From: a virus
Taxonomy: Duplodnaviria; Heunggongvirae; Uroviricota; Caudoviricetes
IMG/VR virus record: IMGVR_UViG_2778261297_000002
Reading direction: 5' to 3' (one strand)
Length of the DNA: 16,614 nucleotides
Part shown: positions 2,686 through 7,987 of the stretch, one piece after another
Position numbering within the stretch: position 1 is the first letter of the stretch
Layout of the letters: every line of letters starts with the position of its first letter
The notes under the pieces: model-generated
Databases searched by the model: none
Told to the model about the DNA's origin: nothing
The model's input: only the letters and a program-made list of their open reading frames with translations
Program-made: the position numbers and the translations under genes

Positions 2686-3498
2686 ATGGTATCGAAAAAA
2701 ATTACTACCTTAACTGGTAGCGGCCAAACTCAATCTGAAATCAGCCTAGAGGATATTTCTGGTAATAATTTTGCTGCGCGAATTCCTGTAACCCTGAGCA
2801 ATATCGGCGGGAAAGAAACTCAGTCTGTAAGCGGCCGTAAGCTGCATACGTTTCTGGCTGTAGGGCGTGACTTTACCAACTGGAGCAAAGGGCGCATCAA
2901 GCAGTACGGGTTCGTCGAAGGGATTGATTATATGATTGTCGAATATTTGACCTCGCCAAAACGGGCGAGCTCAAAATCTCGCCAGCGTATTGAGCATGAC
3001 TACATTGTCAGCCTGAATATGGCTAAAGAGCTTTCTATGGTTGAGCGCAACGCGCAAGGCAAGATGGCTCGTCAGTACTTCATCGACTGCGAAGAACGCC
3101 TGCGCCGGGTCGCCCCTGAAGAACATGAGGCGGCGTTGCTGACATGGCGTAAAAATCGTGTAGCAGCTTGCGAAGATCACAAAAGCATGGCCGAGGCGAT
3201 GAAGGGCTATATCGAACGCACTGGAGATAAGCAGCACGGCTTTGCCTACAGCAATGAATGCACCTTCCTCAATAGCCTTGCGCTGGGTATGCACCCGCGA
3301 GCATGGGCGAAACAGAAAGAAATTCCGGTAAAGCAGGTACGCGACCACATGAACACTGAACAACTGGCGCTGCTGGCCTATCTGGAAAGCCGTAACTGCG
3401 CTCTGCTGGATCTGGATACCAGTACGGCAACCCGCAAGACGAAACTCACTGAACTGGCGCAACGTTGGCTGGTTAAAAGAGTGGGAGGTACAGCATGA
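2686..3498 (+). CDS. Phage antirepressor, AntA/AntB-like
   Basis: 270 aa. N-terminal LHTFLAVGRDFTNWSKGRIKQYGFVEGIDY and central SLNMAKELSMVERNAQGKMARQYFIDCE resemble the AntA/AntB antirepressor family; GGAG 8 nt upstream of ATG. Confidence 0.7.
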   Translation: MVSKKITTLTGSGQTQSEISLEDISGNNFAARIPVTLSNIGGKETQSVSGRKLHTFLAVGRDFTNWSKGRIKQYGFVEGIDYMIVEYLTSPKRASSKSRQRIEHDYIVSLNMAKELSMVERNAQGKMARQYFIDCEERLRRVAPEEHEAALLTWRKNRVAACEDHKSMAEAMKGYIERTGDKQHGFAYSNECTFLNSLALGMHPRAWAKQKEIPVKQVRDHMNTEQLALLAYLESRNCALLDLDTSTATRKTKLTELAQRWLVKRVGGTA

Positions 3499-3802
3499 TC
3501 GCGGATAAAACAAAGGCAGCTTTGCAGAGCTGCCTATGTCACTACGAAAAACCGAAACAGATTAAGCATACTAGGGTTAATGCTGATGGTCAAAACTTCA
3601 CCCAACTCAATTTTGAGGGCGCTGATTTTATTGGTTTTTTTAGCCAGCGCAATTCTGCGCCCACTGATTTTACTCAGCTTTTATGGCAGAGCCCAAAAGT
3701 GAGCTTTGCGTATAACTCATTGATTCCCGCATTCTTCCTCACTTTTGGGAAAAAGGGCGGGAAATCAAACCCTACCCTGTGCTTTCTGTTTCTTCAGTCT
3801 GA

Positions 3803-3916
3803 TTACCGTGTTAGCCAAATAAGGGCTTTAACAATCCAGTATGTGGAATACGCAGTTGCAACTAAAAAAACAATAGCGATTGCGTCTCGCCATTTACCCC
3901 GTTCCGTATCAGGCAT
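3803..3916 (-). CDS. Small hydrophobic peptide (37 aa, one predicted TM helix); kil/toxin-like candidate
   Basis: Hand translation of minus strand: MPDTERGKWRDAIAIVFLVATAYSTYWIVKALIWLTR. GAGGA 7 nt upstream; start lies 3 nt after the preceding stop. Below the ORF-track length cut-off. Confidence 0.35.
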   Translation of the reverse strand: MPDTERGKWRDAIAIVFLVATAYSTYWIVKALIWLTR

Positions 3917-3919
3917 AAA

Positions 3920-4057
3920 TCATTCCTCTGGATCTGCCTTAGCTTTTTTGCGCTGGTCTTCCTTGAGCTTTTTGAGAAATGATTCCAGCGGGAATTGCAT
4001 TGACTTAGCTTTTGGTTCTGCTTCGACGGGTTGCGAATTCTTCTGCTCTTTTGTCAT
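3920..4057 (-). CDS. Small lysine-rich protein (45 aa), unknown function
   Basis: Hand translation: MTKEQKNSQPVEAEPKAKSMQFPLESFLKKLKEDQRKKAKADPEE. AAGGG 7 nt upstream; start 3 nt after the stop of the upstream ORF. Confidence 0.35.
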   Translation of the reverse strand: MTKEQKNSQPVEAEPKAKSMQFPLESFLKKLKEDQRKKAKADPEE

Positions 4058-4060
4058 GTG

Positions 4061-4240
4061 TCAGCCCTTAGGCTCAATGCCGCGCTGCTGTAGTTCTTTG
4101 CGGATGATGCGCTTGATCCAAGCAGCCAGTGATTCGTCGCCATCCTGTTGTTGTGCTTGTTCCATTAGCTCACGTAGCTCGGGATCTAATCTGAACTGGA
4201 ATGGAGGATTACCACGTCTTTCATTTTTGTGTGTTGACAC
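4061..4240 (-). CDS. Ribbon-helix-helix (Arc/CopG-like) DNA-binding protein, candidate repressor
   Basis: Hand translation: (V)STHKNERRGNPPFQFRLDPELRELMEQAQQQDGDESLAAWIKRIIRKELQQRGIEPKG, a beta-strand then two helices as in RHH regulators. Start uncertain (GTG 4240 or internal ATG 4165); several rare codons. Confidence 0.45.
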   Translation of the reverse strand: MSTHKNERRGNPPFQFRLDPELRELMEQAQQQDGDESLAAWIKRIIRKELQQRGIEPKG

Positions 4241-4288
4241 GTTAATTACACCCGATGTAATGTGTTTATGTGTAATGACACATTACAT
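4231..4288. promoter_or_regulatory. Divergent promoter/operator region between the RHH gene and the primase operon
   Basis: TTGACA (4233-4238) with TAATGT about 18 bp downstream on the plus strand. TGTAATGTGT (4256-4265) and the inverted repeat TGTAATG-aca-CATTACA (4271-4287). Confidence 0.45.
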
Positions 4289-4370
4289 ACAAGAAAGACA
4301 AATAGCAACGCCCCGGAGTGCGGGAACACTACCGAGGCGTCTAACCAAACCGTTATACGAGGTAACAGTT

Positions 4371-4640
4371 ATGGCTGGATCACAGCATACCCAAACTCGC
4401 CCGGAATTTACATGGTTATTCCTGGCAACCCCCGATCACACTCCTGAATGCACACCAGTAGTGCTTCGCTTTGATGCTGATACGGAAGATAAAGCCCGCG
4501 CTGCTTTTCCCGGCTGGGATTTAGTTTTTGCCGCCAAAATCCGTGCTCAGGCTCCTTGCCGCGTTGCCTTCTTCGATTACACCACCCGCCGTGGCTGGGA
4601 GTTCGACAGTGCCGCGATTCAGGAGGTGCGTCATGCGTAA
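4371..4640 (+). CDS. Icd-like / Ash-family small phage protein (89 aa)
   Basis: MAGSQHTQTRPEFTWLFLATPDHTPEC...FPGWDLVFAAKIRAQAPCRVAFFDYT...VRHA resembles Icd-like proteins of P4-type islands (from memory, not searched). ACGAGG upstream; first gene of the coupled operon. Confidence 0.55.
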   Translation: MAGSQHTQTRPEFTWLFLATPDHTPECTPVVLRFDADTEDKARAAFPGWDLVFAAKIRAQAPCRVAFFDYTTRRGWEFDSAAIQEVRHA

Positions 4641-5493: not shown

Positions 5494-5855
5494 CCGATAT
5501 TTTTGAAGTGATAGGCCCATTGTTCCGCAAACTGACCGAAACCTGTATTGCTCACCAGATAGCGGAAACCGGTTCGGCAACCTTGCTGGTGGAAAGCGAT
5601 AAGTATATGGCCCGCTATCGCTTCACGCTGGAGCCGCGCGTAACTGAAAACGTATTGATGAAATATATGATTTTTGGCTGCTTTGAAGAATTCGGGCGCG
5701 ATGAGGGGTTAAGGCGTTTGCGGGATATTCTGCTGACCTGCTTTACCGACGATGGCGATATTAACGAAATGGGGTTGCAGATAGTGAAAAGCTGCCACCT
5801 TGAATACCTGCATGAAGATTTGGAAGCGGATCTTTCCAATAAGGTGCTGCACTGA
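5490..5855 (+). CDS. Hypothetical protein (121 aa)
   Basis: ATGA overlap at 5490-5493; GGAGG at 5476-5480. Confidence 0.6.
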   Translation: MTDIFEVIGPLFRKLTETCIAHQIAETGSATLLVESDKYMARYRFTLEPRVTENVLMKYMIFGCFEEFGRDEGLRRLRDILLTCFTDDGDINEMGLQIVKSCHLEYLHEDLEADLSNKVLH

Positions 5856-7987
5856 TGAAGATGAAAAACGCCCCAAACATTAAGTGTCTGCCAAAGGACA
5901 AGTTTACTGAGGCGATTATTTTTGCGGGGGAAGATGCTTATTCACACGCGCAGCACTGGATCGAGAGCGAGGGGAAAAGGGCGGGGGATGATGTGCCGCC
6001 TGTGTATCTGGGGAAAAAGCAGCTGGAGGAGCTTGAAAGGCTGAATATCATCGATCAGGGGCGTCGTTGCGTACGCGTGATTAGAGCTGGCGAGCTTTCC
6101 GAAATGCAGATAAGCACTATCGCAACCAAACTGGCGCTGGCGGATGTGAAAGAGGCCCGGCTGTTTAATGGCATGTTTGAGCCTCAGCCGAAGGAGAACT
6201 GGACGGATGTACTTCCACGGCTCAGGGAAGATGCCGAGCGTGGGGAAAGTATTGTGGTAAATCTGCCTGTGAAAAAAAGGGAGCCAAAGCCTGAACCGGG
6301 TGATGAACTGAAACCCCGCGTAGAGAGCCGTAACGATGGCCTGTACTGGATCACGCCAAAGGTGGATAAGGACAGCGGAGAAATAATCAATAACGAAACG
6401 TGGCTGTGTTCGCCGCTTGAGGTGGTGGGGTCCGGTAGTGACGGGGCCGAGCGCTATCTCGTTTTGCGCTGGCGTTCGCCACGTGGCCATGAAGATATTA
6501 CCAGGGCGATCCCCTGTGCTGATATCGGTGAGCGTGACGGCTGGCGCTCTCTAAAGGCTGGTGGGGTAAACGTAACGACTAAAAGTACATTCCGGGCAAT
6601 TCTTGCCGACTGGCTACAGCAATGTGGTGCAGGGCAGGAATGGATTATTAGCCATACCACCGGCTGGCATCACGGCGCATACATCATGCCAGATGGTGAA
6701 GTTATCGGTGATCCGGAAATGCCTATTCTCTTTAACGGTCGCAGCGCTGCATCTTCCGGTTATGCCGTGGCTGGAACTGCTGAGAGTTGGCGGGATTCAG
6801 TGGCATATCTGGCAGGAGGCAACCCATCGATGATGCTGGGTGTGGCTGCGGCATTGTCTGCGCCGCTGATCGGGCTGGTGGGCGCTGATGGCTTCGGCGT
6901 CCATTTGTTCGAACAGTCCAGCGCCGGTAAGACTACCACCGCAAATATTGCGAGCAGTATTTGGGGCGAGCCCGACGCTTTGAGGTTGACCTGGTACGGT
7001 ACCGCGCTTGGTATTGCTAACGAGGCAGAGGCGCATAACGACAGCCTGTTACCACTTGATGAGGTAGGGCAGGGCAGCAGTGCTAAAGATGTCGCCACGT
7101 CTGCTTACACTTTGTTTAACGGGGCTGGGAAGTTGCAGGGGGCTAAAGAGGGTGGCAACCGGGAGCTAAAGCGCTGGCGAACTGTTGCGATCAGTACCGG
7201 GGAAATGGATATTGAAACATTCCTGGCTGCTGGTGGAATTAGGGTGAAAGCTGGGCAGCTGGTGCGCCTGCTGAATATCCCCATGGAGAAATCCACGGCC
7301 TTTAACGGGCTGGCTAACGGAAAGGCCCACGCCGATGCACTGAAAGAGTCATGGATTGATAACCACGGCGCAGCAGGGCGTGAGTGGGTAAAATGGCTGG
7401 CAACCCACCAGCAGGAGGCTAAACAGGCTGTGCGGGATGCGCAGACGCGCTGGCGCAGTCTTATTCCGGCTGATTATGGTGAACAGGTTCATCGTGTGGC
7501 TGAGCGCTTCGCCATTCTTGAGGCTGCGCTGGTAACTGGTTCGCCGATAACTGGCTGGAGTGAACAAGCCAGCCGGGATGCTATTCAGCATAGCTTCAAT
7601 GCCTGGGTAAAAGAATTCGGAACAGGTAACAAGGAGCACCAGCAGATCATCGAGCAGTGCGAGGCCTTTCTGAACGCGCATGGTATGAGCCGCTATGCTC
7701 CGCTGCCATACTGCCCGTCAGATATGCCAATTCGTGATATGGCTGGATACCGCGAAAGGGGCAAGCATGATGATTCGCCGATGGTGTTTTATACCTTCCC
7801 TTCTGCGTTCGAAAAAGAGATAGCGCAGGGGTTCAATGCGAAGCAGTTCGCCAGAGTTCTGTCTGAATCTGGAATGTTGACACCCCCAGCAAGCGGCAGG
7901 GGATACCAGCGGAAATCACCGCGTATCGATGGGCGTCAGATTAATGTTTACGTCATTCAGTACCAGCAGGAGGGAACCGAAGAATAA
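5855..7987 (+). CDS. Phage/satellite primase-helicase-like replication protein (P4 alpha-like, P-loop NTPase)
   Basis: 710 aa; Walker A-like FEQSSAGKTTTANIASSIWG in the central region; TGATG overlap with the upstream gene; followed directly by the iteron array. Confidence 0.8.
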   Translation: MKMKNAPNIKCLPKDKFTEAIIFAGEDAYSHAQHWIESEGKRAGDDVPPVYLGKKQLEELERLNIIDQGRRCVRVIRAGELSEMQISTIATKLALADVKEARLFNGMFEPQPKENWTDVLPRLREDAERGESIVVNLPVKKREPKPEPGDELKPRVESRNDGLYWITPKVDKDSGEIINNETWLCSPLEVVGSGSDGAERYLVLRWRSPRGHEDITRAIPCADIGERDGWRSLKAGGVNVTTKSTFRAILADWLQQCGAGQEWIISHTTGWHHGAYIMPDGEVIGDPEMPILFNGRSAASSGYAVAGTAESWRDSVAYLAGGNPSMMLGVAAALSAPLIGLVGADGFGVHLFEQSSAGKTTTANIASSIWGEPDALRLTWYGTALGIANEAEAHNDSLLPLDEVGQGSSAKDVATSAYTLFNGAGKLQGAKEGGNRELKRWRTVAISTGEMDIETFLAAGGIRVKAGQLVRLLNIPMEKSTAFNGLANGKAHADALKESWIDNHGAAGREWVKWLATHQQEAKQAVRDAQTRWRSLIPADYGEQVHRVAERFAILEAALVTGSPITGWSEQASRDAIQHSFNAWVKEFGTGNKEHQQIIEQCEAFLNAHGMSRYAPLPYCPSDMPIRDMAGYRERGKHDDSPMVFYTFPSAFEKEIAQGFNAKQFARVLSESGMLTPPASGRGYQRKSPRIDGRQINVYVIQYQQEGTEE

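Follow-up and report, generated by a model that had tools for sequence, protein, structure and literature searches.

Gram-negative phage-inducible chromosomal islands (PICIs) were defined in 2018, in a study that characterised a single regulator, the activator AlpA, and described the global repressor as "unclear" (PMC6092414). According to that study, AlpA activates its own promoter, the downstream PICI genes (as shown for EcCICFT073) and replication. Islands of this kind are organised in four zones, named Integration, Bro, Replication and Late (PMC10111431). In phage P4, the open reading frame (ORF) eta has its start, ATGATGATG, on the stop codon of vis, a gene resembling alpA; kil forms the terminal part of eta, which also contains an Ash domain as defined by Pfam. 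In the summary of Forti et al. (1999) given in PMC10111431, translation of eta occurs only on transcripts from the upstream late promoter, and this translation prevents premature termination so that the replication genes are reached. Here we describe a locus centred on positions 3803–4288 of a stretch of 16,614 nucleotides (IMG/VR virus record IMGVR_UViG_2778261297_000002, referred to below as the window), which is matched at 100% identity by the chromosome of Escherichia coli EC09. Read from its genes alone, the window is a Gram-negative PICI or P4-like satellite of this strain: it carries co-oriented int, AlpA-like, AntA, Icd-like, DUF927 primase and PerC genes, the gcd gene adjoins the element, and the order of the four zones is the same. 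We argue that the locus is probably the immunity or switch region of this satellite, and that both of its strands are used.

Other described systems resemble the locus in part. In the immI region of phage P22 (Arc, Mnt and ant), Arc shuts both of two overlapping divergent promoters. In phage lambda, the cI repressor gene is co-transcribed with the membrane exclusion genes rexA and rexB. In SaPIs and other Gram-positive PICIs, the gene for the repressor Stl (Rpr) is divergent from the excision and replication module (str/xis) of the satellite. Arc-like repressors and the P4 eta/kil arrangement are thus already known; what is new here is their combination, a repressor operon with micro-protein cargo that lies antisense within a frame apparently maintained open by selection, in company with two unannotated RNA candidates.

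On the minus strand of the window, three ORFs lie in one common frame, with 3 nt from each stop codon to the next start (TGA-cac-ATG and TGA-ttt-ATG). They encode proteins of 59 residues (4240–4061, GTG start), 45 residues (4057–3920, ATG start) and 37 residues (3916–3803, ATG start), all below 60 residues in length. A preliminary description of this DNA, made from its letters alone, had placed the trio at these positions and called it hidden. That is true only of the 37-residue ORF, which encodes a single-pass membrane peptide (MPDTERGKWRDAIAIVFLVATAYSTYWIVKALIWLTR) and has no RefSeq annotation for EC09, because RefSeq annotates the other two: WP_012600012.1, named "YlcI/YnfO family protein", and WP_157921956.1, a hypothetical protein. 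The same description assigned a ribosome-binding site to each ORF, and by eye we find Shine-Dalgarno-like motifs that are strong for the 37-residue ORF (GAGGAA, 6 nt 5′ of the ATG), fair for the 45-residue ORF (AAGGG) and weak for the 59-residue ORF (GGGTG).

The start codons, stop codons and 3-nt spacers of these small ORFs are conserved among related islands, and where lengths change they do so in-frame. Frameshifts or stops in the minus-strand ORFs of relatives had been named beforehand as evidence that would overturn coding on this strand; there are none in any relative compared. Klebsiella and Raoultella islands also have the pair of 45- and 37-residue ORFs, unbroken and identically spaced, which places the trio beyond chance. 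On this comparative evidence, the three minus-strand ORFs are genuine genes. Codon substitution, also proposed earlier as a way to decide which strand is coding, gave pairwise ratios of nonsynonymous to synonymous change (pN/pS) for the 45- plus 37-residue module of 0.25–0.31 in the minus frame, against 0.36–0.54 in the open antisense frame. The lower value is thus on the minus strand, but the two frames have their third codon positions in common, which keeps the contrast modest, and pN/pS cannot settle the strand by itself; as a sole arbiter of the coding strand it was dropped for this reason. A hairpin directly 3′ of the 37-residue ORF is unconvincing as a terminator (z = −0.38).

The 59-residue protein is, by its sequence, an Arc-like ribbon-helix-helix (RHH) protein, as the preliminary description had proposed from the residue pattern. 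It matches the Arc-like repressor family phrog_228 of PHROG at 2.7e-6 over residues 5–57. A profile built from seven relatives and searched against the PDB aligns residues 12–51 in register with residues 3–42 of the N-terminal RHH domain of NikR (E = 0.041), and also matches the RHH proteins HP0222 and SvtR. RHH domains (Arc/MetJ/CopG) span approximately 45 residues, with a β-strand at the N-terminus and then two helices, and such proteins bind repeated or inverted DNA sites as dimers or dimers of dimers. A single-sequence AlphaFold (AF2) model of the monomer places helices at residues 20–31 and 36–52 after an extended N-terminus, which is what an RHH monomer should show. The RefSeq name refers to the YlcI/YnfO family of lambdoid prophages (DUF3950, NF041551), on which a literature search found no study. 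The RHH proteins of related islands match PF13132, the Pfam model for DUF3950, and those of loci L016 and L033 do carry this domain, whereas the window protein has no match to it at E ≤ 1. Its score against NF041551 is 21.2 bits (E = 2.2e-4), below the family cut-off of 30, and we therefore name it an Arc-like RHH protein rather than a member of YlcI/YnfO.

Upstream of the RHH gene is a perfect 11-nt inverted repeat, with arms at 4255–4265 (ATGTAATGTGT) and 4278–4288 (ACACATTACAT) separated by a 12-nt spacer, each arm containing the hexamer TGTAAT. Operator-like repeats had been noted at this place before, and comparison with related islands strengthens that reading. The region between the RHH gene and the divergent icd gene consists of two parts: the part next to the RHH gene varies with the N-terminal, DNA-reading sequence of the RHH protein, and the part next to icd is conserved in all types. 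We found five RHH types, each with its own inverted repeat at the same position and with a conserved leader downstream. The repeats are ATGTAATGTGT / ACACATTACAT in the window type, GTGTGTACCTAT / ATAGGTACACAC in L007, GTACGTACATAAC / GTTACGTACGTAC in L013, and GTGGCATTCACTT / AAGTGCATGCCAC in L004, where a third copy is present; L032 has yet another pair. In islands with the same RHH type, the repeat is identical or near-identical. This co-variation between operator and RHH type is the best available evidence that the RHH protein binds these repeats, and we infer that it would bind the repeat at 4255–4288 as a dimer of dimers. No further exact copy of the 11-nt repeat occurs in the window, nor any beyond chance near alpA or int, and the regulon of the RHH protein therefore appears to be local.

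The two arms of the repeat coincide with back-to-back candidate promoters. On the plus strand, a near-consensus candidate promoter for the icd/kil–primase operon (4234–4261) consists of a −35 element TTGACA at 4234–4239, a 16-nt spacer and a −10 element TGTAAT at 4256–4261, inside the left arm. Our promoter scan omits it, as the scan requires A at the second position of the −10 element. On the minus strand, the candidate promoter of the RHH operon (4308–4282) has a −35 element TTGCTA at 4308–4303, a 15-nt spacer and a −10 element TGTAAT at 4287–4282, inside the right arm. Both assignments are putative and were read from the letters. From its family, the position of its gene and the co-variation described above, the RHH protein is very likely to be a local repressor of the divergent icd/kil–primase promoter. 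The likeness to P22 immI is that a small Arc-type RHH protein is encoded first in a short operon and appears to act on an operator in overlapping divergent promoters, its own and the opposing one. The differences are that the genes which follow encode two tiny proteins and not an antirepressor, that the opposing transcript is a replication operon and not mnt, and that the whole operon lies antisense inside another, putatively translated, frame.

The first codons of the RHH gene, GTG TCA AC, are the reverse complement of the −35 element TTGACA in the candidate divergent icd promoter. The N-terminal sequence M/V-S-T is kept across RHH specificity types (4238–4240) because ATGTCAAC is the reverse complement of this −35 element. 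We note that a promoter element would thus constrain the sequence of the RHH protein.

Among 5426 complete E. coli genomes there are 573 matching records, and approximately 250 of these have the 59-residue gene at 80% identity or more, with the RHH gene and operator 80–100% identical. A segment corresponding to 4059–4415, which covers the RHH gene and the operator region and reaches 45 nt into icd, is present at 99.7% identity on approximately 33 E. coli plasmids of 60–145 kb. The plasmid copies are bounded on one side by an IS3 fragment and on the other by a hypothetical gene, BrxR (WYL) and a BREX system. The segment looks like a recombined fragment of an island, and may now serve as a regulated promoter for BREX.

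The 45-residue protein, described earlier as basic, is hydrophilic and only mildly basic, with an isoelectric point of 9.05 and 11 Lys and Arg against 9 Asp and Glu; its conserved core is MQFPLESFLKKLKE. Homologues in Klebsiella and Raoultella have 76–96% identity. In L007, L009–L015 and E. coli VG1046 (L003), the 45-residue gene begins 3 nt after the preceding gene, which encodes an RHH protein in all of these loci except the Raoultella locus L007, where a 113-residue gene intervenes. In the same loci, an intact ORF of 37–40 residues follows again after 3 nt, with 73–97% identity to the window peptide, and in L012 this ORF was called by a gene caller. In all, seven independent Klebsiella, Raoultella and E. 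coli loci have the pair with identical spacing and intact frames. Two more distant homologues of the 37-residue peptide were found, P0008 (65% identity) and P0009 (70%), and a HMMER search of 1.8 billion representative proteins returned one relative. The peptide is hydrophobic, and its maximum Kyte-Doolittle value over a 19-residue window is 1.70, at residues 15–33, in agreement with the single transmembrane (TM) span predicted earlier.

A profile search widens the 45-residue family to proteins of 57–70 residues from E. coli and Shigella, of which one member is found in 811 contigs. These relatives match phrog_21027 and have a basic stretch (RKRRRRKK) followed by the amphipathic motif F-x-LE-x-[FY]LK. 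The 57-residue relatives directly follow a different RHH protein, of DUF3950 type, in PICI-like islands, and have no TM peptide behind them. A variant of 50–51 residues is followed by a different protein with an N-terminal TM segment, which is 121 residues long in L016. The N- and C-terminal parts of the family are highly variable. PHROG gave only weak matches for the pair (phrog_2191 at E = 0.014 for the 45-residue protein and phrog_12319 at E = 0.23 for the 37-residue peptide).

The pair is readily separated from the RHH gene. The whole trio is present in only 2 of the 5426 complete E. coli genomes, and the pair is present in none of 12 species-representative genomes that carry the RHH protein of the window; in these, the gene after the RHH gene is absent, or encodes a multi-pass membrane protein of 147 or 165 residues, or, in Shigella, a 58-residue relative. 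The best explanation of this pattern is that the 45- and 37-residue genes are variable cargo on the repressor transcript, and their products would therefore be expected in the quiescent state. The arrangement recalls cI-rexA-rexB, in that accessory genes, one of them for a membrane protein, share the transcript of the maintenance repressor; it differs in that there is no sequence similarity and that the products here have only 45 and 37 residues. By analogy with rexAB, one could guess at a membrane-directed accessory role, such as exclusion of or interference with an incoming phage, or modulation of the host, and we regard this as possible but rather doubtful.

The 113-residue gene of the Raoultella locus (L007, 3656–3997) has weak matches to a SWIM zinc finger (E = 0.019) and to the PADLOC candidate PDC-S62 (E = 1.8e-4). 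Its insertion is a further sign that the repressor operon accepts cargo. In one Logan contig of 1734 nt (P0010), an 83-residue product is predicted in which the 45- and 37-residue proteins are fused via a frameshifted linker; this reflects an error of assembly or else a fusion that occurs naturally.

A different role has to be considered for the 45-residue protein. Together with its relatives of 57–70 residues it could be a regulatory partner of the RHH protein, acting as a co-repressor, an anti-repressor or a nucleic-acid-binding modulator, with the TM peptide a late addition. In many islands a member of the family is encoded behind an RHH gene, and these RHH genes are of several specificity types; its longer members carry the basic stretch and amphipathic motif described above, and the C-terminus of the RHH protein (ELQQRGIEPKG) is conserved together with the start of the next gene. 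However, the 45-residue gene is missing from many islands that have the same RHH protein and operator, and highly variable N- and C-terminal parts such as those of its product would be more usual in cargo, or in a protein that faces a changing target. We therefore consider a regulatory partnership unlikely.

The trio had also been proposed to combine a repressor with a kil- or toxin-like module. In the form of the omega-epsilon-zeta layout, the RHH regulator would be followed by a 45-residue antitoxin and a 37-residue membrane toxin, which would stabilise the island or kill infected cells. The gene order of regulator, small soluble protein and small hydrophobic protein fits such a layout, and the 3-nt spacing suggests coupled translation. 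In size and hydrophobicity the 37-residue peptide resembles type I toxins, and the 45–51-residue subfamily is always followed by a membrane protein, either that of 37–40 residues or the 121-residue protein in L016. However, none of the three proteins has a match among the toxin, antitoxin and defence families of Pfam, NCBIfam and PADLOC. In systems of the omega-epsilon-zeta type, the RHH regulator, antitoxin and toxin always occur together and the toxin belongs to a recognisable family; here the three genes are separable in nature. Hundreds of genomes have the RHH gene and the same operator with neither partner, and the wider family of 57–70 residues, in 811 contigs, has no TM peptide behind it. 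Type I toxins (Hok, Ldr, TisB, Ibs, ShoB and similar) are small hydrophobic peptides with an antisense RNA antitoxin of their own, usually in a separate transcription unit. The 37-residue peptide, in contrast, is encoded by the third, closely spaced gene of a repressor operon and has no family match in Pfam, NCBIfam or PADLOC, and no dedicated antisense RNA was seen over its ORF. If a toxin were produced constitutively from the repressor transcript, it would need an ever-present partner, and a Kil homologue is already encoded by the island, on the opposite strand. A toxin module is thus improbable, and cargo on the repressor transcript remains our preferred description of the pair.

The Kil homologue is the Icd-like protein of 89 residues encoded at 4371–4640 on the plus strand (a RefSeq coding sequence), the first gene of the replication operon. 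It matches NF033153 at 1.3e-17 and phrog_1743 at 4.7e-41. In BLASTP comparisons it is 38% identical (3e-9) to the Icd-like protein of L007, which in turn is 48% identical (2e-16) to P4 Kil, and by this chain of similarity it is a homologue of P4 Kil.

The icd gene is the C-terminal part of a much longer plus-strand frame of 381 codons (3495–4640), which passes antisense through the trio, the promoter region and the first of the RNA candidates described below. Its ATG at 3495 lies within CAGCATGA and overlaps the stop codon of the upstream antA gene (ATGA), with GGAGG 6 nt upstream. The frame then runs for 298 codons without a stop into the icd start, which it joins in-frame; between 3507 and 4371 there are no stops in this frame, compared with 21 and 21 in the other plus frames. 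The predicted product is rich in Ser and Cys, as the preliminary description had remarked (13% and 5.5%, respectively, of the 292 residues upstream of the Icd-like part). It has no Pfam match, and it is without conservation outside the parts that overlap minus-strand genes. The frame therefore appears to be selected for openness and not for its product.

That description had also called the product not protein-like, and setting the frame aside on that ground is probably mistaken. Of 13 related loci in which the frame could be anchored, 12 keep the layout: an ORF of 137–684 codons begins at, or beside, the stop of the upstream alpA or Bro gene, and ends in-frame inside icd or 5–27 nt 5′ of the icd ATG, where the other frames have 5–36 stops. 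The arrangement is the one found in P4, and on this analogy the plus frame is likely to be an eta-like frame that is translated during read-through. In both elements, the primase operon opens with the gene of a Kil homologue; the Kil gene ends a longer ORF that begins upstream of the early promoter; the start of the long ORF overlaps the stop of an upstream gene of alpA/vis type or a Bro gene (ATGA or ATGATGATG); and the upstream promoter is the induced one. By the same analogy, and in view of the depletion of stop codons, we infer that eta-like translation would protect the transcript from Rho-dependent termination in the window. The differences are also clear. The frame has 381 codons here and approximately 200 in P4. 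Inside P4 eta are the Ash region (PF10554) and the immunity RNA CI (C4), together with the seqA and seqC targets of this RNA, whereas in the window the strand opposite the frame holds a protein repressor operon and two candidate antisense RNAs.

We note that one E. coli island (2013C-3033, L006, 3196–4468) has the RHH gene and operator, a P4-type RNA immunity region (two copies of C4, with isrK/c4-a1b1 in an "ash family" pseudo-coding sequence) and two Icd-like genes. It carries both systems, and protein- and RNA-based immunity can therefore coexist in this class of island.

The openness of the plus frame could in principle be a passive by-product of common ancestry and of the coincidence of third codon positions in the two strands. 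The two frames do share synonymous sites, and the plus-strand product has an odd composition and no family match. In L033, L004, L005 and L024, where antisense stops are rare anyway given the minus-strand proteins, the open frame is not surprising (P = 0.15–0.6 by the resampling described next), and in one locus (L012) the frame is broken, with eight stops; these loci count against selection for openness. In the resampling, we redrew the codons of the minus-strand genes from the usage of the island itself while keeping their amino acids fixed. The plus frame stayed open in 0.3% of trials in the window, 0.04% in L007, 0.3% in L013 and 0.5% in L006 (P = 0.0004–0.005 in these four loci). Real island and host genes have 0.033 stops per codon in the antisense register, and at this rate an open frame over the trio (438 nt, 146 codons) has P = 0.008. 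The minus-strand genes thus show a bias in codon choice that avoids antisense stops (P = 0.003). Spacers without coding function on the minus strand, which cannot be aligned between loci, are also free of stops: 804 nt in L007 have 0 in this frame and 11–17 in the other five, and 304 nt in the window have 0 and 2–11. A 93-nt insertion in E. coli VG1046 (L003) keeps the frame open; the start of the frame is always on an upstream stop codon and has a Shine-Dalgarno sequence, and its end is at or within icd; and P4 provides an experimentally studied precedent. A passive origin is therefore improbable. Both strands of this 1-kb stretch are apparently in use.

That only the plus-strand ORF of 381 codons is real, and the minus-strand ORFs are chance antisense frames, is hardly credible, although the plus frame is long and maintained: the RHH protein has family matches that are independent of the locus and relatives with DUF3950, the operator co-varies with RHH type, the small ORFs have kept their starts, stops and 3-nt spacers at 76–96% protein identity, the plus-strand product is unconserved outside the overlaps, and RefSeq annotates two of the three minus-strand ORFs.

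Two candidate antisense RNAs are encoded on the minus strand, one on either side of the RHH operon; neither belongs to an Rfam family or is annotated in RefSeq. The first is a small RNA (sRNA) gene candidate at 3593–3504, with a −35 element TTGACC (3593–3588), a 17-nt spacer and a −10 element TATGCT (3570–3565). Its predicted transcript of approximately 55 nt ends in a terminator hairpin (3535–3514) and a CTTTGTTTT U-tail. It was found in 14 loci from Escherichia, Klebsiella, Raoultella, Rosenbergiella, Edaphovirga, Pluralibacter and Citrobacter. Its 5′ part (approximately 30 nt) is variable and its 3′ end adjoins the antA stop codon; there are compensatory changes at three pairs of the terminator stem, and the fold has z = −2.7. 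The candidate is antisense to codons 4–21, approximately, of the eta-like frame and is therefore well placed to block its translation. Pairing in trans of the candidate RNA (3504–3558) with the icd leader, in the manner of P1 c4 or P4 CI, was considered and rejected, as the matches are of only 6–7 nt and fail in L005.

The second is a cis-antisense RNA candidate at 4384–4298, which covers the Shine-Dalgarno sequence and the ATG of icd/kil and has two hairpins and a U-rich tail. It ends in a predicted intrinsic terminator (terminator-like site at 4333–4304, minus strand), which lies immediately 5′ of the candidate RHH promoter. The region 4298–4384 folds better as the minus strand (−34.8 kcal/mol, z = −4.4) than as the plus strand (−24.7 kcal/mol, z = −2.7). 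In 12 loci, the terminator stem of 14 pairs is kept via G·U pairs that would be C·A mismatches on the plus strand, and six pairs are double-changed on the minus strand. We had considered a conserved hairpin of the plus-strand icd leader mRNA as the explanation, and the pair counts favour the minus strand. A match to SymR (RF01809) on the minus strand at 4304–4376 scores 25.9 bits against a gathering threshold of 61 (E = 0.31), so the resemblance to SymR is in shape and position only.

In the VG1046-3E9 island (L003), the insertion lies at 3237–3330, aligned between positions 3600 and 3610 of the window, and is similar to the unit beside it (AAGTGAGGA...AATCAATGA..TTA..GCAAAGC...TGCCATAAAA). 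Repetition of such a unit therefore seems to have built up the spacer that separates the 37-residue gene from the sRNA candidate.

These elements can be assembled into a model. In the quiescent state, the RHH operon would be transcribed leftwards and the 45- and 37-residue products made. The repeat covers the −10 hexamers of the back-to-back promoters, so that binding of the RHH protein would both shut the icd/kil–primase operon and autoregulate the RHH operon. On induction, a helper phage would raise AlpA, and the transcript would continue via antA into the eta-like frame. Coupled translation would keep ribosomes on approximately 900 nt of antisense RNA and shield it from Rho until the icd/kil and primase genes are reached. 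Convergent transcription and antisense RNA would then silence the repressor operon. We tentatively suggest that the locus may be a convergent switch of this kind, in which the repressor operon lies antisense within a frame selected only for its lack of stops, the two antisense RNAs block the eta-like and kil starts in the quiescent state, and AlpA-driven read-through flips the switch; we hold this complete scheme to be possible and less secure than its parts. Compared with Stl, the likeness is that a repressor gene is divergent from the module for satellite replication. The differences are that Stl is a large helix-turn-helix protein inactivated by helper-phage proteins, whereas the window protein is an RHH protein of 59 residues, and that induction of Gram-negative PICIs proceeds via the activator AlpA and not via a known anti-repressor.

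Several observations weigh against this account, in addition to the loci named above in which the plus frame is broken or its openness is unsurprising. The RHH family scores are modest overall, including that against NF041551; the N-terminal β-strand is unformed in the AF2 monomer model, and a Foldseek search of this model against the PDB gave no match. The separation of the strands by pN/pS is modest. Both promoters were assigned by eye, and that of the RHH operon is weak. The 45- and 37-residue proteins have no match in Pfam or NCBIfam, in PADLOC, or in phage genomes searched by tblastn, and only the location of their genes and their physical character suggest the function proposed for them. 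An Ash domain is absent from the window, as is any match to C4, isrK or c4-a1b1 at E ≤ 1, in scans which find both the domain and the RNA in P4 and in L006; the P4 mechanism is therefore not simply transferable. Nevertheless, an immunity or switch region that uses both strands remains on balance the more probable description of the locus.

The RHH protein is accordingly a candidate for the repressor of Gram-negative PICIs, with type-specific operators on the replication promoter, in hundreds of E. coli genomes and several enterobacterial genera. The P4 eta/kil device would be general in this class of island, where it coexists with opposite-strand genes whose codon choice it constrains. The locus thus offers a well-defined system in which to study dual-strand coding and the protection from Rho that translation affords. 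Current annotation misses the 37-residue gene, the long frame and the two conserved RNA candidates. Two unstudied families of micro-proteins, phrog_21027 and the 37-residue peptide, are likely to be expressed in satellite quiescence. If true, the switch reading would supply the missing repressor and provide a clear case of selection for translation itself, acting over three genes of the opposite strand.

The remaining genes of the window are all on the plus strand. The integrase gene (1–1227; tyrosine-type recombinase/integrase in RefSeq) is followed directly at its 3′ end by an int-alpA RNA motif, RF02996, at 1236–1303 (60.8 bits, E = 1e-10). The AlpA-like regulator matches Pfam PF05930. The AntA/AntB antirepressor-family gene of the Bro zone (2686–3498, a RefSeq coding sequence) matches PF08346 at 8.8e-24, and it is the stop codon of this gene that overlaps the start of the eta-like frame. 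Between the Icd-like gene and the DUF927 primase (5855–7987) are four small genes, and a PerC-family regulator is encoded 3′ of the primase in the gene order. The interval between int and alpA contains a gene for a protein of 274 residues (1320–2144), in a region of low G+C content (35% over 1501–2000), which has no match in Pfam or PADLOC. In related islands, this slot holds other genes, encoding proteins of 264–323 residues, one of them with DUF6387. The position looks like a variable cargo slot, and is possibly a defence hotspot.

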